A stretch of DNA of 64,000 nucleotides, taken from NCBI GenBank assembly GCA_963805855.1, contig CAWDVW010000007.1, positions 224,001-288,000 on the forward strand. The letters run 5' to 3'. Shown here piece after piece: positions 43,294-51,615 of this stretch (the first letter of the stretch is position 1; every line of letters begins with the position of its first letter). The notes below the pieces were generated by a model. That model was not told the DNA's origin and ran no database searches. It saw nothing but the letters and a program-made list of their open reading frames with translations. The translations under genes and the position numbers were made by a program. Origin of the DNA: Candidatus Dadabacteria bacterium (lineage in GTDB: Bacteria > Desulfobacterota_D > UBA1144 > Nemesobacterales > CSP1-2).

Positions 43294-43905
43294 ATGAGAA
43301 TAACAGCTTTAGGTTTTATCTTGATCGGATTTTGTTTCTTTATTTGTTTTCTCGAGCTTTCGTACTCAAACGAGCAAAAAGGGGACGAGCTCAACGAGGT
43401 AAATAGGGAGGCCCAAATAAAGCGAGGGGAATACCTTGTCAATGCTGCAGGGTGCAATGACTGCCATTCACCAAAGATCTTCACTCCGAAAGGACCGGTA
43501 CCGGACCCGGATAGACTATTATCGGGTTATCCCTCCAAAGAAAAACTTCCTGATATTCCCAAAGATTTAATTGGTCCCGATGATTGGGGCGGTTTATTTA
43601 CGAATGACTTAACAGCTTGGACTGGGCCGTGGGGAGCGACGTTTGCGACGAATTTAACTCCCGATGAACAGACAGGAATTGGTTTATGGACCGAGGAGCT
43701 ATTTATCAAAACAATGCGCACCGGAAAACACCTGGGAGCGGGTAGGGATATTTTACCCCCAATGCCCTGGTATAACCTTTCAAAGCTGAGCGACGATGAT
43801 CTCAAAGCTATTTTTGCATATCTTCGAACAATTAAGCCCAAAAAAAATATGGTGCCTGCTCCAATACCACCGACTGATTTGTCTCCGGATAAAACAGGTG
43901 AGTAG
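43294..43905 (+). CDS. Periplasmic c-type cytochrome
   Basis: Signal peptide, RGEYLV...CNDCH, NLTPD-x-x-TG, PPMPW. Confidence 0.88.
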   Translation: MRITALGFILIGFCFFICFLELSYSNEQKGDELNEVNREAQIKRGEYLVNAAGCNDCHSPKIFTPKGPVPDPDRLLSGYPSKEKLPDIPKDLIGPDDWGGLFTNDLTAWTGPWGATFATNLTPDEQTGIGLWTEELFIKTMRTGKHLGAGRDILPPMPWYNLSKLSDDDLKAIFAYLRTIKPKKNMVPAPIPPTDLSPDKTGE

Positions 43906-44099
43906 TACTAGTTAAACATGTTGTGAGGAAGGCAGAAAGTCGATTGCATTGAGGAAAATAGTCACTAACCACTTTTGATTACTGCTAGGTACTTTAATGT
44001 ATCCCAGAGGATTAATTCAACAAGCATGCCGATGGCAAGTTTGTTTCTTCCTCCGTGGTTTAATGGGGTTCTACCTTCCTCAGGTTCTTGCTCTTCTCG

Positions 44100-44176
44100 G
44101 TAGGGATCGCATATATGCGATCCCTACATATTCGTTTAATATCAGTAAAATGTAGAGGAGCACCGTAGTTCTCTAC
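44100..44176. repeat. GTAG...CTAC palindromes
   Basis: Perfect 28-bp palindrome gtagggatcgcatatatgcgatccctac (44100-44127) and degenerate gtagaggagcaccgtagttctctac (44152-44176). Confidence 0.8.
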
Positions 44177-44399
44177 TTTTTGCCATCCTGAATTTATTTC
44201 AGGCTTCAACGTAAATAGTGACAAGTGTTCTTGTAAATGCGTGCCGGTTTTCGTTAGTTAGTATTTGACACATGGCGAATGGATAAGCAAAGTTTAAGAT
44301 ATTTGCTATTTTTTAAAATCAAATAGTTTACATTTTTTCTTCTCTTCATACCATTAACACTGTTTGTTTGCGCCATTTGTTGTTTTAGGGAGGGATTCA

Positions 44400-45197
44400 A
44401 TGAAACTTAAACACAAAGTTGCGATCGTTACTGGTGGAGGGACAGGCATAGGTCGAGCTACCGCGCTTCTGTTGGCCGAAGAAGGAGCTCACGTCGCCGT
44501 GGTTGGAAGGAGGGAAAGCAGACTTCTTGAGACCGTAAATGATATCAGGGAGCACGGTGGGAGCGCTCATCAAATCCCGGGAGATATATCAAAGGTAAGC
44601 GAAACCGAGAGAATCGTTAAAGAGACTGTAGAGCGGTTCGGCGGCCTTGATATTCTTGTAAACAATGCGGGTGTCTACAGGGGTCCAAAAATAACTGAGA
44701 CCACCGAGGATGATTATGATTACGTAATGGATATAAACCTTAAGGGTACGTTCTTTATGTGCAAGCATGCCATTCCTGAAATGAAAAAGAGGGGTCAGGG
44801 GGCCATAATAAATGTGGGAAGTGCCCTCGGGATAAAGGGATGGAAGGATGCATCTACATCTGTTTATTCAGCGTCGAAGGGCGGAGTCGCCATGCTTACA
44901 AAAGCACTGGCTCTGGAGGTTGCAAAAGATCAAGTCAGGGTAAACTGCATATCTCCCGGCATTGTGGAAACGGAGGTATTGGAAACCTTGGGAATCCCAA
45001 AGCACGAGGTGCCCGAGCGTCTGAAACAGTGGAATTCATTTCACCCGCTTGGTCGAAACGGTCAGCCTGAAGAGGTTGCAAAAGCAGTTCTCTATTTCGC
45101 ATCAGATGATTCATCCTGGGCGACGGGCTCAGTTTTCAACCTCGACGGCGGCGTAACCGCCGCACAGGTGATTCACACAAGATGGCAGCCAGGGTAA
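44400..45197 (+). CDS. Short-chain dehydrogenase/reductase (FabG-like)
   Basis: TGGGTGIG, NNAG, YSASK; ATG at 44400. Confidence 0.92.
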   Translation: MKLKHKVAIVTGGGTGIGRATALLLAEEGAHVAVVGRRESRLLETVNDIREHGGSAHQIPGDISKVSETERIVKETVERFGGLDILVNNAGVYRGPKITETTEDDYDYVMDINLKGTFFMCKHAIPEMKKRGQGAIINVGSALGIKGWKDASTSVYSASKGGVAMLTKALALEVAKDQVRVNCISPGIVETEVLETLGIPKHEVPERLKQWNSFHPLGRNGQPEEVAKAVLYFASDDSSWATGSVFNLDGGVTAAQVIHTRWQPG

Positions 45198-45362
45198 AAA
45201 GAACTAATCGGGGTTTTCTGGGTCACTTCTGCATCTTAGGCCTAGAATGGCTCAGTGTCTTGATTGTTTATTCATATTATTTGAATTTATGTAATTCTTG
45301 ATCTGGTGTAAGCTTTAGACCCGATCCAGGATAATCTATGGACTGATGAGTGCCGAACCCTC

Positions 45363-46736
45363 ATGAACTTTGATGAAACGAGAAGGAAATTAATAAATGA
45401 AGTTCACCAATTGCTGCGCCAGCATTTAGAGCGGCTGGTATGGACCAAAGATCACTTAATAAATTTTCAAACAATAAGACTGCGGGAGATATTGAGTATC
45501 GCAAAGCAAAATACTTCTTGGTATAAAGAAAGTCTCAAGAATGTTGACCCGAATGAATTCAAGTTGGAAGAACTTGGGGATCTACCTGTCTTAAGTAAAA
45601 ATGATGTGACGAATAATTGGAACGATGTGGTCGCTGTACCTGGATTGAGAAAAGAGATCGCTGAAGACCATCTTGAAATGTTACGAGAAGGGAAAATCGA
45701 TAATCCCTATTTTGATGATCGCTATCTCTTCATAGCCACCGGTGGCTCGAGTGGTAAAAGGGGTCTATTTATTTGGGATTGGGAGTTTTTAAAGGAAACC
45801 GCCTGTATCAGTTATCGATATCTCGCAGATCAAGAGATCAGGTGCGGATATAACGGACCAATGAAGCTGGCAACTATTGAAGCTCCCACCTTATTACATG
45901 GGAGCGCTCATTTATTCACGATAAATGTCCTTCCTGAAATCGAGGTAAGGACCCTCAGTGCGGTTGAGTCTCTGGTAAGGCTGAATAATATTTTGAACGA
46001 GTATAGACCAAATTATTTGGTAGGTTACGCGTCAGTTATTGCCGAACTCGCGAGGGATCAATTAAAGTGCGATCTGAATATTCAACCACGCTGGGTCAGC
46101 ACAAATTCGGAGCCTCTGGATGAAGATATGCGCTCTATTATAAAGGAAGCATGGGGCATTGAGGCCCGTAATTCCTGGGGTAGTGTGGAGATCGGATGTG
46201 TAGCCGTGGAGGCGGGAAATCGTTCTGGAATGATAATTGGAGAAGATGGAGTCATACTAGAGCTTGTTGACGATAGTTTGCAACATGTCGGAGAGTCAAA
46301 GGATGCGACAAAGGTAGTTGCAACAAGTCTAATTAATCGATCGATGCCCATAATTAGATACGTAATTGAGGATGTTCTGGAAATTGAAGACGATAATATC
46401 GAGTTTCCCGCATACCGAAGGATCAAATCTATTCTTGGCAGGGCAGACAACTGGTTTGTTTACGAAAATTCCAGGATTCACCCTATGGCTTTTAGAGATG
46501 TTATGTCTCAGGTGAAAGAGATCGAGGAGTATCAAATATTGCAAACGAGAGACGGTGCGGCCATTAAACTTATCTGTGAGGATAAGCCTGAAGTAGAGCA
46601 GATTTTGAACAAGATCAAAGAAAATTTAAGAAAACAGGGCTTGAAAACCCCCCATGTTACAGTCGATATCGTAAACAGCTTGCCAAGACACCCCGAAACT
46701 GGAAAGGTAAAGCGTTTTATACCTCTAAAATCTTGA
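45363..46736 (+). CDS. Phenylacetate-CoA ligase-like (ANL/CapK-type) protein
   Basis: TGGSSGKRG, WGSVE, P-x-IRY-x-x-x-D, GRAD, TGKVKRF. Confidence 0.8.
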   Translation: MNFDETRRKLINEVHQLLRQHLERLVWTKDHLINFQTIRLREILSIAKQNTSWYKESLKNVDPNEFKLEELGDLPVLSKNDVTNNWNDVVAVPGLRKEIAEDHLEMLREGKIDNPYFDDRYLFIATGGSSGKRGLFIWDWEFLKETACISYRYLADQEIRCGYNGPMKLATIEAPTLLHGSAHLFTINVLPEIEVRTLSAVESLVRLNNILNEYRPNYLVGYASVIAELARDQLKCDLNIQPRWVSTNSEPLDEDMRSIIKEAWGIEARNSWGSVEIGCVAVEAGNRSGMIIGEDGVILELVDDSLQHVGESKDATKVVATSLINRSMPIIRYVIEDVLEIEDDNIEFPAYRRIKSILGRADNWFVYENSRIHPMAFRDVMSQVKEIEEYQILQTRDGAAIKLICEDKPEVEQILNKIKENLRKQGLKTPHVTVDIVNSLPRHPETGKVKRFIPLKS

Positions 46737-46866
46737 ATATTAATCTGGTAAGACAGCACACATTCATTTCGGTTATATTAATTATATGCACCCGAAACTA
46801 GAAGGGACTGGAGTAAATCAAGAATCTTTGTTAATATTGTTATTTATTAATTAAGGAGAAGGAAAT

Positions 46867-47370
46867 ATGCCTGTATTTGAATATGAATGCGATAAATGCG
46901 TAGATAAATACAATTCCGATATTTCAGATTTGGTAAAGAAATTAAATAAGACAAGTGCCTCAAAATTGCTGAAGAGGAATCCCGGTTTCAAGTACATCGA
47001 ATCCTCCAATAGCAAAGATAACAAGGTGCATTTTTCAATTGGTGAACGAGGTAAACCGAATACAAGGAGATTTCGTTATCCACTTGATAGGGATAAAGTC
47101 TTGTATCTCGAGTTAAAGAATTATCGTTTCAGCGAGTTGATATACAATAAAGAAGAGGAAAAGGATCTGAAGTGTCCATTGTGTAAAAAGGGCGAGAGCG
47201 TGAGAAGAGTTTTTTCAACGTTCAAGGCGATTTTTGATGATAAGAATAAACGGGCGCCACGGCCTGGCGATGAATTAAGGTGGCATTTGGAGTATAAACA
47301 GCAAAAAGATGAGGAGATCAAGAGTGAATGGGTAGGGCAGGATTATTTAGACCAATATTTCCAAAGATAG
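46867..47370 (+). CDS. FmdB-like zinc ribbon protein with a large internal insertion
   Basis: MPVFEYECDKC ...75 aa... RFSELI...KCPLC...RRVFSTF; strong SD. Confidence 0.75.
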   Translation: MPVFEYECDKCVDKYNSDISDLVKKLNKTSASKLLKRNPGFKYIESSNSKDNKVHFSIGERGKPNTRRFRYPLDRDKVLYLELKNYRFSELIYNKEEEKDLKCPLCKKGESVRRVFSTFKAIFDDKNKRAPRPGDELRWHLEYKQQKDEEIKSEWVGQDYLDQYFQR

Positions 47371-47382
47371 GGAGCAATCAAA

Positions 47383-47865
47383 ATGCCTTTATATGAATAT
47401 GAATGTTTGAAATGCAGAAATAATCTTGAAACTTCTTTGAAAAGTCTTGAGAAAAAGGCGACAAAGAAGGCTGTATCTGATTTAGTTAAGAAGTATCCTA
47501 ATATTCATTATCTGCTGGTGATTGATCTGGATAATAAAAAGATGCTAGCCGAATACGGGAAGAAGAAGTCTGGCACCACCGACATGGATTTTTATCTCAA
47601 CGATGGTTCAAAAATGGTGCTGGTAAATATAGACAAGTTCAGGTTTTCAGAGCTTATTTTAGATAAAGATGATGAAAAGAGGCTTAAGTGTTATTGTGGT
47701 GAAACTAAAAAAATAGAGAGGGTTGTTTCTACCTTCGCATATACACATGATCTATCTACAAATATGCCTAAACCAGACCTTTCCGGCTTGCCTCCCGAGG
47801 TTAGAGCAAAGACATTTTTAACTGATTACATAGAAGAAAAGGACAGGCCAAAGGCGAATCGGTAA
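47383..47865 (+). CDS. FmdB-like zinc ribbon protein with a large internal insertion (paralog)
   Basis: MPLYEYECLKC ...75 aa... RFSELI...KCYCG...ERVVSTF; GGAG SD. Confidence 0.75.
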   Translation: MPLYEYECLKCRNNLETSLKSLEKKATKKAVSDLVKKYPNIHYLLVIDLDNKKMLAEYGKKKSGTTDMDFYLNDGSKMVLVNIDKFRFSELILDKDDEKRLKCYCGETKKIERVVSTFAYTHDLSTNMPKPDLSGLPPEVRAKTFLTDYIEEKDRPKANR

Positions 47866-47892
47866 CCATGCATTTTAATAATGAATTTTGAT

Positions 47893-47920
47893 GTAGGGAC
47901 ACAAAATTTTGCGCTTCTAA
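47893..47920. repeat. Degenerate 28-bp GTAG palindrome
   Basis: gtagggacacaaaattttgcgcttctaa; overlaps the hisIE stop codon. Confidence 0.55.
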
Positions 47921-48579
47921 TCGTTATATTCCTCTTTTTTTCGACCAAATCTTCTTCCGAGTTCTTCATAAATATCCTCTGGGGTGATACCAAAATTGGC
48001 AAGTAATACAAGGGAGTGAAACCAAAGGTCCGCTACTTCGTAAGTTATTTCATTGTTATTGTCGTTTTTAGCGGCTATAACCGCTTCGCCTGCCTCCTCA
48101 CCGATCTTTTTTAAGATGCTGTCAATACCGTCCTTAAATAGTTTACTAACGTATGACCCCTCTTTCGGATTTCGCTTCCTATCGTCAACAATTTGATATA
48201 CCTCATCCAACGTTCTACCACCTTTGATACCCTCAAATGCGGGTGCGCCTCTGTTACTTTCTCCGAGGCCTGTGAAGAAGCAGGTTCGCTGACCAGTATG
48301 GCAGGAAACTCCCTTTTGATTGACTAGCACCAGAACGGCGTCTCTGTCACAGTCAAGGAAGATCTGCTTCACCTCCTGAGTGTTTCCGGATTCTTCGCCT
48401 TTTTCCCAAAGCTTGTTTCTGGACCGGCTCCAGAAATGTGCCCTGTTTTTCTCGTGAGTTTTTTCAATTGCCTCTTTATTTGCGTAAGCGAACATAAGGA
48501 CTTGTCCATTTTCGGCATCTTGGACAATGACCGGCACTAAACCTTTATCATCGTACATGATTTTATCAATGTTCATCAC
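47917..48579 (-). CDS. hisIE: Bifunctional phosphoribosyl-AMP cyclohydrolase/phosphoribosyl-ATP diphosphatase
   Basis: WSRSR[11 protein letters not shown], DCDRD, CHTG-x-x-[17 protein letters not shown]. Confidence 0.96.
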
Positions 48580-48717
48580 TTCCTCCGCTACTAATACTAA
48601 CCAAGTTTAATCCAAATTCCGAGTTCTACGGTTTAGATTTCTTAGGATTGGCTTTACTAAGTTATAATTGTTGACTATATTTTAATCATATTGTAGTAGG
48701 CGTTAAGGAGAAAAGAT

Positions 48718-48927
48718 ATGGCAAGAGTAACAATTGAAGATTGCCTCGAAAAGGTAGAAAACAGGTTTGCGCTATCCATTACAGCTATGAAAAGAGCAAA
48801 GCAGATTGCTGAGGGAGCCGCTCCCCTTTCGCAAGAGACCGATAATAAGCCTATAGTACTTGCATTGAGAGAGATTGCCGAAGGTAAAGTAAAGGTTAAG
48901 TATCCAAAATCCCCAGAGAAAAAGTAG
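48718..48927 (+). CDS. rpoZ: RNA polymerase subunit omega
   Basis: [10 protein letters not shown]...NRF...KRAKQI...[13 protein letters not shown]. Confidence 0.96.
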
Positions 48928-49309
48928 CTGTGGATGTTTCCTGATTAGGGTTTTTGCTTCTAAAACAACGCATGGGAATATCAATTGGTTTGATTGTTCA
49001 TAGCCTGTAATCTATTTTCCACTCACTCCCTAAGATCGTTTTTAAGTGATTTCAATGAGCAATTCTAGAATTACATTAATTCGGCATTTTAGAATCATAT
49101 CGTCATTGATTGTAATTCAGAAGTAATTAGGGTTCTGAAACGAATTTAATTTTGTAGATTTTTACGATGAATGTTCCATGAATTCATGTGGAGTGCGTCA
49201 TTGCTGTAGCTGTAAGATAATCCGGGGACAGTATCTTAGATCTTAAATGGGCATTCAAAAAATTGCCAAAATCAATTCCGGAAGCGTTAAAAAAAGTGAC
49301 AATCATTAC

Positions 49310-49488
49310 TGTCATCTCGAAGGAGCAAAGTGACTGAGAGAACTAATTAATTATAGCAATAGATATCTCGCATTCGCTCGATACGCAAGCGTTTTTTGTT
49401 AGCCCTTGATTTTTGTTTCTTTGTATCAAGACAAAGAAAATAAAAAATTAAAGAATGGATCCCCGATTAAAACATTCGGGGATGACGG
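49310..49488. repeat. GTCAT-type palindromic repeats
   Basis: tgtcatctcga at 49310; agatatctcgcattcgctcga (49361-49381) has one mismatch to the reverse complement of 19801-19821; atccccga/tcggggatgac hairpin at 49459-49486. Confidence 0.7.
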
Positions 49489-49665
49489 ATAAGCAAATTT
49501 CCAGGAAATTTATTGTTGTTAGGATTTCGTCCACGAAATATCTAAGATCTAAAGCGATGACATGAGAGACCTTTTGTTTATGTACCGATATCTTATAGGG
49601 GCCTGCATGAAGTTTTATTTTCCATACAGTTTTGAATTCATTAGAATCAAAGTTAGGGTTTGTTC

Positions 49666-51615
49666 ATGATTAAGGTGGGAATAGATACGGGAGGGACTTT
49701 CACGGATTTTGTTTTTTCCAATGGAAAAGATCAGTTCACCCATAAAATATCCTCGACTCCCCATGACCCTTCTCAGGCTATCATTCAGGGGCTGATTGAG
49801 ATTCTGGGAAAGGAATTCAAAAGAACCGAAATTATTCATGGAACGACTGTAGGAACAAATGCACTGCTAGAGCGAAAAGGTGCAAAAGTGGCACTCATAA
49901 CTACAAAAGGGTTTGAAGATGTGCTTGAAATTGGAAGACAGAACAGGGGGGAATTATATAATCTCTTCTGGCAGCCCCAGGAGCCGCTTGTTTCGAGAAC
50001 GCTGAGGTTTGGAGTAAGTGAGCGGGTTGATTACGAGGGACGAATATTAAAGAGGGTGGAAATAGGAGAGATTAGAAAACTGTTAGGAAGACTTAAAAAG
50101 TTAAAAGTCGAGTGCGTTGCAATATCATTTCTTCACTCATACAAGAATCCCAAAAATGAAATTGATGCGGAAAAGATTCTCAGTTCCTTAGGTTTACCCA
50201 TTTCTACTTCATCCAGGATCCTTCCGGAGTTCAGGGAATATGAAAGGACATCAACGATAGTCGCCAATTCTTACCTTCAGCCCAAGGTAAGGGTTTATAT
50301 GAATTCGTTAGCTGAAAATCTCCCTGAATCTCGTGTACTTGTTATGCAATCGAGTGGCGGAGTCACTTCTCCAAAGCAAGCGGGGGAGGAGCCGGTAAGG
50401 ATTATATACTCAGGTCCTGCCGGAGGAGTTGTCGGAGGTTACAGGGTTTCGGAGATGATGGGTTATAAGAGGGTTATAACTTATGATATGGGCGGAACGT
50501 CTACAGACATCGCGCTTTGTGACGGTTCCCTCATGTTTACAACAGAAAACAAGATAGACGGGATTCCTATTACGATGCCAATGCTTGACGTTATAACAAT
50601 TGGTGCGGGTGGTGGGTCGATCGCCTATGTCGATTCTGGGGGAGTGTTGAAGGTGGGTCCCGAGAGTGCGGGTGCCGACCCAGGGCCTGCCTGTTATGGG
50701 AGAGGAAGTTTTCCGACGGTGACGGATGCTAATGTTGTTCTGGGGAGGATTAACGCCAAATGGTTTCTGGGAGGACAGATGAAAATTTTTCCTGAGAAAT
50801 CAAGATCGGCTCTCAGGAGACTTGCAGATAGACTTAATACGTCTCTTTTAAGGCTGGCGGATGGCATAATAAAGGTTTCCAACTCCAATATGGAAAGAGC
50901 CCTCAGGGTAGCCTCCGTCGGGAGAGGTTATGATCCCAGGGATTTTGCACTTTTCTCTTTCGGTGGTGCCGGTGGTCTTCATGCGTGCGAACTAGCAGTT
51001 GGATTGGGAATAAAAAAAGTAATATTTCCGAAAGATCCCGGCGTATTTTCTGCCCTTGGAATGCTCATGGCCGAATCCTTCAAGGATTATAGTCAAACAA
51101 TATTCCTGAGCGGAAAGCAAATCAATCTGGGTTCGATAGAAAAGGGGTTTAAGGCATTAGAGAAAAAGGCTCGGGAAGATTTTCCATCTGGAGACTTGAG
51201 ATTCGACCGTTTTATCGATGCGAGATATAAAAGGCAATCTCATGAAATAACAATACCCTTCAGCGATGGTTTTAAAAAGGCGTTTCATAGAACTCATAAG
51301 AAAAAGTATGGATATGAGAAATCGCATGACGAGATAGAGATTGTCACACTCAGGCTGAGGGCTGTGTTAAGGTCAAAAGGAAGGATAAGACTTCCACTGT
51401 TAGACAACCCACAAAGAAAAATTGCGCCTGATAAGACTAAATTGTTCTTAAATAACAAGAGGCTTGGTGTCAATTCATATGTTAGAGATGATTTCTATAG
51501 GGGGTTTACTTTTAAGGGACCAGCGTTGGTTTTTGAGAATACATCGACGCTGTTTATTCCTCCTCAATTTAGATGCGAGATCGATAAATGGGGGAATATA
51601 TTAGCTACTGTATGA
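49666..51615 (+). CDS. Hydantoinase A/5-oxoprolinase ATP-dependent subunit
   Basis: GIDTGGTFTD, HGTTVGTNALLE, SGPAGG, DMGGTSTD, SAGADPGPACY. Confidence 0.93.
   Translation: MIKVGIDTGGTFTDFVFSNGKDQFTHKISSTPHDPSQAIIQGLIEILGKEFKRTEIIHGTTVGTNALLERKGAKVALITTKGFEDVLEIGRQNRGELYNLFWQPQEPLVSRTLRFGVSERVDYEGRILKRVEIGEIRKLLGRLKKLKVECVAISFLHSYKNPKNEIDAEKILSSLGLPISTSSRILPEFREYERTSTIVANSYLQPKVRVYMNSLAENLPESRVLVMQSSGGVTSPKQAGEEPVRIIYSGPAGGVVGGYRVSEMMGYKRVITYDMGGTSTDIALCDGSLMFTTENKIDGIPITMPMLDVITIGAGGGSIAYVDSGGVLKVGPESAGADPGPACYGRGSFPTVTDANVVLGRINAKWFLGGQMKIFPEKSRSALRRLADRLNTSLLRLADGIIKVSNSNMERALRVASVGRGYDPRDFALFSFGGAGGLHACELAVGLGIKKVIFPKDPGVFSALGMLMAESFKDYSQTIFLSGKQINLGSIEKGFKALEKKAREDFPSGDLRFDRFIDARYKRQSHEITIPFSDGFKKAFHRTHKKKYGYEKSHDEIEIVTLRLRAVLRSKGRIRLPLLDNPQRKIAPDKTKLFLNNKRLGVNSYVRDDFYRGFTFKGPALVFENTSTLFIPPQFRCEIDKWGNILATV

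Follow-up and report, generated by a model that had tools for sequence, protein, structure and literature searches.

Tandem FmdB-type zinc ribbons, each split by a homologous insert, form a conserved gene pair in Dadabacteria

Examination of a 64,000-nucleotide stretch of a Candidatus Dadabacteria genome (hereafter the window) revealed two adjacent genes, A and B, whose products are, as judged from their sequences, paralogous FmdB-type zinc ribbons, each split by a homologous insert. The split ribbon pair is real and well bounded, and it is a phylum-core, single-copy tandem in Dadabacteria; its function we infer. The feature is not a chance one, since database searches yielded 163 homologues of A and 130 of B (the best 120 of 163 and the best 120 of 130 were used) and matches to A were found in 115 of 120 phylum genomes. 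The elements of the locus, in window positions, are:

46807..46837, plus strand: promoter-like element ACTGGA, 16 nt, TGTTAATAT; a putative promoter
46829-46837, plus strand: extended -10-like TG-n-TAATAT, part of the promoter-like element upstream of A
46853..46858, plus strand: Shine-Dalgarno-like AAGGAG of A
46867..47370, plus strand: gene A, 167 aa (P0001), a split FmdB zinc ribbon with insert and conserved tail
46867..46902, plus strand: A ribbon N-terminal half, residues 1-12, C8/C11; positions 1-12 of PF09723 and 1-14 of the outside FmdB profile
46903..47121, plus strand: A insert, 73 aa, residues 13-85, boundary +/-2
47122..47223, plus strand: A ribbon C-terminal half, residues 86-119, C103/C106; positions 13-48 of the outside FmdB profile
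47224..47367, plus strand: A tail, residues 120-167, of low model confidence
47329-47361, plus strand: A terminal motif W-V-G-x-[DE]-[HY]-L-x-Q-Y-F, within the A tail
47369..47374, plus strand: Shine-Dalgarno-like AGGGAG of B, overlapping the A stop codon; similar in relatives
47383..47865, plus strand: gene B, 160 aa (P0002), a split FmdB zinc ribbon with insert and conserved tail
47383..47418, plus strand: B ribbon N-terminal half, residues 1-12, C8/C11
47419..47637, plus strand: B insert, 73 aa, residues 13-85, predicted topology as in A
47638..47736, plus strand: B ribbon C-terminal half, residues 86-118, C103/C105 (CxC)
47737..47862, plus strand: B tail, residues 119-160, DLST-x-MPKPDLS-x-LPP...Y-I-E-E-K-D-R-P-K

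A preliminary description of this DNA had reported two open reading frames with FmdB-like motifs, 12 bp apart and each with a Shine-Dalgarno sequence. Both frames are present at these coordinates, the gap from the A stop to the B start is indeed 12 bp, and each Shine-Dalgarno-like element lies 8 nt before its ATG. The two proteins are 34% identical over residues 1-133 and contain exactly four cysteines each (C8, C11, C103 and C106 in A; C8, C11, C103 and C105 in B), the second knuckle of B being CxC in 54 of 115 homologues, CxxC in 54, another form in 5 and a single cysteine in 2. The 75-residue splitting segment of that description was right as a distance, with exactly 75 residues separating the first CxxC from RFSELI in each protein; the insert proper is 73 residues long, because the remaining two belong to the normal ribbon. 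The segments had also been called very divergent, and A-type inserts are in fact only about 16-24% identical to the window's B insert; nevertheless they are homologous and not just equal in length, with family profiles of A and B aligning without a gap through the insert (hhalign 99.8%, 150 columns) and with identical predicted secondary structure.

The resemblance of A and B to the FmdB family (PF09723 Zn_ribbon_8, TIGR02605, COG2331) lies in the MP-x-[YF]-E-[YF]-x-CxxC start from Met1, the second knuckle and the S-x-F end. Unlike that family, they carry a 73-residue folded domain between the knuckles, hence their full-length scores fall, in pieces, below the cut-offs of PF09723 (27.1 and 25.2 bits for A and B; cut-off 34.4) and TIGR02605 (29.0 and 28.7 bits; cut-off 31.3). 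They further differ from it as an obligate tandem pair with conserved tails and, in 54/115 homologues, a CxC knuckle in B. A full-length match to an already described family, the objection anticipated in the preliminary description, did not arise, neither protein being over any Pfam or NCBIfam cut-off. When 66-81 residues were cut from the window proteins and the products scored with a profile built from the N-termini of 80 FmdB proteins of other lineages, the score peaked at an excision of 73 residues for both proteins (55.7 and 53.6 bits; the best native half of each reached 22.2 and 26.6). The spacing of the knuckles, natively 91, becomes about 17-18 as in FmdB only after these 73 residues are removed.

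The same excision was found to occur in nature. A TIGR02605 scan of the phylum gave full-length ribbon matches right behind gene A in some genomes, and these correspond to a short B of 87 aa, a contiguous ribbon followed by the usual B tail; it occurs in seven genomes, spread over three genera, of the family to which the window belongs. Genome G015 (family f2) has short versions of both A and B (85 and 87 aa) in the same gene slot. Among 21 metagenome loci we found a second all-short pair (L221) and four cases of a long A with a short B (L222, L225, L226 and L230). Overall, the insert is absent from B in 8 of 109 tandem genomes, 7 of which keep it in A, so that 101 genomes have both inserts, 7 that of A only and 1 neither; genomes without a sequence reading were here judged from spacing and match start, and the 101 include one with a broken B. 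In that genome (G009) gene B lies in two open frames, one of 59 aa and then one of 102 aa with the tail (L059:7943-8119, minus strand for L059; G009:C57:11680-11901), owing to a break or an assembly error. The reverse state, an insert in B with none in A, was seen neither in the 109 tandem genomes nor at the 21 metagenome loci. Insert-less and insert-bearing forms align with a single clean gap of 73 columns, and insert length is tightly kept (72-74 in 24 long B, 70-76 in 32 long A). The four insert-less orthologues tested (three B, one A) all pass the FmdB cut-offs, with 50.3-57.2 bits for TIGR02605 and 47.0-51.0 bits for PF09723.

We did not find the insert outside the A/B family within the databases and genomes searched. 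Its profile gave 28 matches among 1.84 billion representative sequences; the 22 that were read (21 new sequences and the known P0066, with six short matches of 51-79 aa left out) were all family members or fragments, with the exception of a 1406-aa repeat protein (E 1.8e-4). In 401 sampled genomes of a neighbouring phylum there were 11 weak matches, the best 5 of which resembled by sequence SurA/PrsA-like parvulins (3), an alanyl-tRNA synthetase and a signalling protein and were judged to be chance, and 0 of 600 candidate stretches in viral contigs carried the insert. An intein was considered and rejected: inteins are expected to carry characteristic terminal residues, and the insert has only 73 aa and lacks them.

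The pair is found throughout the phylum. Gene A was matched in 92 of the 94 high-quality genomes, the five misses overall being 77-96% complete, and B in 111 of 120. In 109 of the 110 genomes with both genes placed they stand in tandem, A then B, and in the remaining one they are split over contig ends; the conservation as a pair on which the preliminary description had made its proposal depend is thus borne out. Family f9, with genomes of 0.8-1.1 Mb, keeps the pair in 18 of 19 cases. Marine Dadabacteria have been described, in the part available to us of a preprint (bioRxiv 10.1101/2020.06.22.165886), as having streamlined genomes with limited or no gene duplication. Its retention as a unit even in streamlined marine genomes of about 1 Mb marks the pair as apparently close to indispensable. 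No description of it was found in the literature covered, a scope outside which supplements and most subscription journals lay. The source labels of homologues include Candidatus Dadabacteria and Thermodesulfobacteriota, on which basis the phylum is taken to be Dadabacteria. Two records with Dadabacteria-type pair proteins are labelled 'Candidatus Caldarchaeum' and 'Ignavibacteriales' (P0272 and L065) and are probably mis-binned or mislabelled.

In three RpoB+RpoC trees (41, 26 and 28 rows, rooted with four outside genomes, redundant genomes being dropped in the last two) the insert-less genomes were nested among insert-bearing ones. This nesting favours an ancestral insert that was probably lost later. 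However, long branches lie at the base of the trees, and grouping every two-insert genome into one clade was rejected only weakly (p-AU 0.037, LG+G4), so that stepwise gain, from none to an insert in A and then a copy to B, would be the less favoured but still viable history. In a gene tree built without the insert all 17 short B grouped together (100/100). Ribbon halves of short and long B from the same family are less identical (35-58%) than their tails (57-86%), so the ribbon has probably adapted to the insert or been swapped as a block. As a side observation from these genes, RpoB matches were split within one long frame in two genomes (G051:C1:1273058-1277632 and G057:C1:94500-99170; 1555 and 1603 aa), and RpoB/RpoC frames of family f5 (L165, L166) reach 1494-1560 aa, suggesting large insertions.

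AlphaFold2 monomer models (pLDDT 69 for A and 85 for B) predict a confidently folded insert in B (pLDDT 94-97) and a somewhat less confident one in A (about 80). The preliminary description had proposed that a folded domain is grafted into the ribbon's hairpin, and these values, together with the ordinary FmdB scores of the insert-less orthologues, uphold it. The models share the order E3-8, H9-24, H28-37, E41-48, E53/54-59, E66-72, E77-83/84, E87-91, second knuckle, E111-115, the elements predicted for the A insert being H9-24, H28-37, E41-48, E54-59, E66-72 and E77-84. The tails of both proteins are modelled with low confidence. Prediction of a complex of A, B and two Zn weighs neither way, as both runs scored 0.00 (mark 0.32) and the controls did not fold.

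Among solved structures, Cache/PDC sensor domains come closest (3lid: Z 8.0, rmsd 2.5, 78 aligned; CqsR 9nia: Z 8.7, rmsd 2.2, 68 aligned), followed by lower matches to the uS3 C-terminal domain (Z 6.0-6.3) and a roadblock-type/Ragulator chain (Z 5.6). However, the Cache/PDC values of 8.0-8.7 are to be read against 7.8 in the next rows and against the 7-8 at which models without a clear match typically peak, and the superposition search barely probed the ribbon and tails. The fold search by Foldseek that had been suggested as a check returned no PDB match at E<=0.001, nor any to viral structures at that threshold. Sequence searches of the PDB with A, B, insert and short-B profiles reached at best E 0.19, and the ESM Atlas held only what appears to be the A/B family's own cluster and Zn_ribbon_8 clusters. 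Profile comparison by hhalign gave 0.06-0.45% against a 20-sequence dCache_1 alignment (0.45% over 22 columns, the beta1-beta2 hairpin only) and 0.32% against a single Robl_LC7 sequence, and with 38 insert sequences the Cache families gave only one weak match each for CHASE5 (E 0.048) and sCache_3_2 (E 0.24). In the models the insert therefore resembles a minimal Cache/roadblock scaffold with a match at background level. The earlier suggestion of a PAS/Cache- or roadblock-like fold holds to the extent that Cache/PDC folds are the nearest, with roadblock lower; beyond that it is not supported, the Z values being at background and profile homology lacking in the comparisons made. With Cache/PDC domains (CqsR 9nia, vpHK1S-Z8 3lid, TlpC 5wbf) and roadblock/Ragulator proteins (6b9x_E, 3ms6) the insert shares two helices on an antiparallel sheet and an I-x-V-x-D-(x)-G hairpin signature, but it differs from them in having four strands only, in being cytoplasmic (no signal or membrane segment was seen), in lying inside a zinc ribbon and in having neither detectable profile homology nor a kinase or chemoreceptor output.

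The alignments of 108 A and 115 B sequences show the tails to be the most conserved part of both proteins, with at least 90% conservation in 24 of 48 columns of the A tail and 22 of 42 of the B tail, as compared to 21 of 73 in the A insert and 5 of 73 in the B insert. The B tail is nearly unchanged in insert-less B. Both insert-less A keep the V-G...L-x-Q-[YF]-F core of the A tail, and their mid-tail motif is replaced; this faintly hints that the mid-tail motif and the insert of A may work together, the two sequences being related and probably reflecting one event. Conserved positions of the A insert are E45 (99%), G59, R67 (97%), F69 (94%), L79, Y80 (97%) and E82 (100%). That insert has a mean net charge of +7, with R67/R68/R70 conserved, and the B insert is neutral; the net charge of the whole A protein ranges from -10 to +12. 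A database search with the B tail returned only B-type proteins (10/10), and among the matches listed in a species-genome scan only L065, an A plus short-B pair, carried it, the other 79 loci matching by the ribbon only.

In family f9 both A and B bear extra conserved C-terminal extensions. Two other FmdB subfamilies, outside Dadabacteria, have strongly conserved tails, so that a ribbon with a conserved tail is a recurring design; the two tail types, DSRN[IV]GL..KKRA and DEND/P.S.A...KMG.E, divide between two groups of loci (L067, L068, L070-L073, L075, L077, L078 and L082; L088, L095, L108, L123, L127, L131 and L138). The A C-terminus (47338-47361) reads Q-x-x-L-x-x-Y-F, which we take to be PIP-box-like and which is the sole such terminus among the 3885 ORF termini of the genome. 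As a clamp motif it was rejected, the Q being present in 73 of 108 homologues only; no PCNA was found in 5 genomes.

The genomic surroundings set the pair apart as a unit. Across 31 loci, a divergent enoyl-CoA hydratase gene on the opposite strand is found upstream in 30, at a distance of up to 500 bp in 22 of these, and a convergent hisIE, likewise on the opposite strand, is found downstream in 29; further out, rpoZ (27), era (24), a hydantoinase (22) and aspS (18) recur. The promoter-like motif ACT[GA]GA-N15/17-GTTA precedes A in 17 of 31 genomes. With flanking genes on the opposite strand and a promoter-like motif adjoining it, the pair reads as an independent unit and not as a member of a pathway operon; we predict a two-gene operon of its own, set in a housekeeping region and without a link to any pathway. 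As the signature of a regulon the motif was rejected: the genome gave 1 strict and 11 loose matches, as compared to 1-5 and 16-25 in shuffled sequence, and the only strict copy is the one upstream of A. Rfam had 0 matches in 44000-50000. In the window, three genes (43294-46736) separate the pair from the enoyl-CoA hydratase gene: a cytochrome-c-like gene, an SDR and a PaaK/F390-synthetase-like CoA ligase. Only 1 of 31 loci has a CoA-ligase gene on the same strand directly upstream, and this segment is therefore a lineage-specific insertion into the conserved slot. All five f9 loci (L041-L044, L064) have an opposite-strand ORF of 75-85 aa, of one family, between B and hisIE. In the 6 sequencing runs examined, 2 of them on record as RNA, two exact 151-nt pieces of B occurred in one oligo-dT sediment library and one piece matching downstream in a second; transcription is not shown thereby.

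The sole biochemically studied FmdB-type member that we found is Ruc, which we take to belong to TIGR02605. Ruc (Rv0991c) of M. tuberculosis binds one zinc, through C8, C11, C29 and C32, and needs its disordered tail, and the C-terminal region of its family is highly variable and hydrophilic with no shared sequence (Becker et al. 2020, PMC7448276, in the part available to us, where the name FmdB has 0 occurrences). The natural short forms of the pair have their cysteines at C8, C11, C30 and C33. Common to Ruc and the pair are thus a small four-cysteine zinc ribbon and a tail without a confident fold, in a lineage in which Hsp33 was detected in 0 of 5 genomes tested. In contrast to Ruc, the A and B tails are conserved and the ribbons carry an inserted domain. 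No chaperone or protease families were recognised among the recurring neighbour clusters (clusters, not gene-by-gene annotation), nor any CIRCE-like site at the pair (<=3 mismatches to the pattern); two such inverted repeats occur genome-wide, both away from it (C5:961922 and C5:992354 in G000). The genome of the pair also has a separate plain FmdB/Ruc-like gene (G000:C7:452222; L061:7223-7567) with a low-complexity tail and 67.5 bits for TIGR02605, and matches over the TIGR02605 cut-off occur in 116 of 120 genomes. Neighbours of that gene resemble an SDR, a penicillin-binding protein, a cysteine synthase and FtsH, with a similar context in L053 and L058. Elsewhere, one part of a Burkholderia FmdB gene lacked transposon insertions (a table row of PMC8770471), which hints that FmdB-type ribbons may be essential.

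We tentatively propose, with a probability of roughly 40%, that A and B are a small zinc-stabilised adaptor pair that docks on a conserved housekeeping target via its conserved tails. By analogy with Ruc of M. tuberculosis, the four cysteines of each protein would hold one Zn2+; the insert is predicted to fold on its own as two helices on a four-stranded sheet; in the models the ribbon halves re-pair through beta-strands 3-8, 87-91 and 111-115; and the tails, predicted to be unstructured when free, would fold upon binding. A and B would be co-transcribed from the conserved putative promoter in about equal amounts. The insert may serve as an accessory interaction surface. It would matter chiefly in A, possibly by packing against the mid-tail motif of the same protein; we suggest this packing because the motif is replaced where A has no insert. 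Oxidation-driven zinc release could, more speculatively, regulate docking.

Conserved tails of low model confidence are the usual sign of fold-on-binding motifs, and these tails speak for an adaptor pair, together with the persistence of the B tail without an insert and the survival of A's terminal VG..L.Q[YF]F core when its insert is absent. The phylum-wide retention, including f9 despite streamlining, the stand-alone organisation and the absence of any A-minus/B-plus state point the same way. On the other hand, no function is suggested by the neighbouring genes, conserved tails would be just as expected of a specialised chaperone or of proteins that bind each other through them, and the charge range of A, while opposing a fixed nucleic-acid site, is nothing positive for docking. 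The coupling of mid-tail and insert rests on the two related insert-less A, probably one event.

Other readings share parts of this evidence. A and B could be Ruc-like redox-switched holdases, in which oxidation frees zinc, the tails bind unfolded proteins and the insert adds client or partner specificity. The cysteine layout, equal to that of Ruc once the insert is removed, the low-confidence tails and the failure to find Hsp33 would all suit such proteins, as would the selenocysteine FmdB forms taken to imply a thiol-redox function (PMC2398784, in the portion available, and a table row of PMC13188914). However, tails that are near-invariant and contain aromatic residues are unlike the variable, hydrophilic ones reported in the available text for Ruc (PMC7448276), the locus has neither recognised chaperone or protease neighbour families nor a CIRCE-like site, and an ordinary FmdB/Ruc-like gene is present separately, and we consider this reading unlikely. 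The preliminary description had instead envisaged a heterodimeric sensor or regulator. In such a sensor the Cache/PAS-like inserts would take up a small molecule, and the zinc ribbons would relay the signal to the tails. In its favour are the Cache/PDC domains at the head of the structural matches of both models and the near-invariant polar and aromatic strand residues of the A insert (E45, R67, F69, Y80, E82). But the Z values are on a par with the usual top score of models that match nothing clearly, Foldseek and the dCache_1 comparison give no homology, the insert is less conserved than the tails, and there is no output domain. PDC domains carry a pocket-forming segment between strands 2 and 3, where the model has a loop of just 6 residues. 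Since the B insert is absent in 8 of 109 genomes and that of A is kept in 7 of these, insert-to-insert sensing cannot be the core function, and the sensor in this form is improbable. The adaptor pair fits better than either the sensor or the Ruc-like chaperone because the tails are most conserved and the B insert is dispensable.

A nucleic-acid role, as regulators binding RNA polymerase or the ribosome in the sense of the old label 'FmdB regulatory protein' and of actinobacterial RbpA, would have the basic A insert contact RNA or DNA. The mean charge of +7 with the conserved arginines, the uS3 domain among the fold matches, the recurrence of era, aspS and rpoZ nearby and a promoter-like motif conserved as for an autoregulated gene are in line with it, yet the net charge varies widely, the motif has no second strict copy and hence no regulon, and no DNA-binding family was matched. 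The RbpA model (PF13397) had no match at the pair in three genomes (G000, G015 and G102) at E<=10, being over its cut-off in 1 of 14 genomes as a control, and the N-terminal cysteine cluster of beta' is intact in the five RpoC sequences viewed; we hold this role to be improbable as well. A bolder reading, also improbable, makes the pair a switch that is essential and defines the phylum: a reduced domain of Cache/roadblock type, set into a zinc-thiol ribbon like that of Ruc, would let a ligand or partner bound at the invariant E45/R67/F69/Y80/E82 of A gate zinc release and tail exposure. If such a sensor-gated zinc ribbon were true, the natural two-, one- and zero-insert versions would be ready-made controls.

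Few small proteins are as common in bacteria as FmdB-type ribbons, and the A/B pair would be a good signature marker for Dadabacteria. The clean gain or loss of 73 residues shows that a whole domain can enter or leave a zinc-ribbon hairpin with the gene surviving. The natural A+B+, A+B- and A-B- pairs thus offer a direct way to separate the roles of ribbon, insert and tail.
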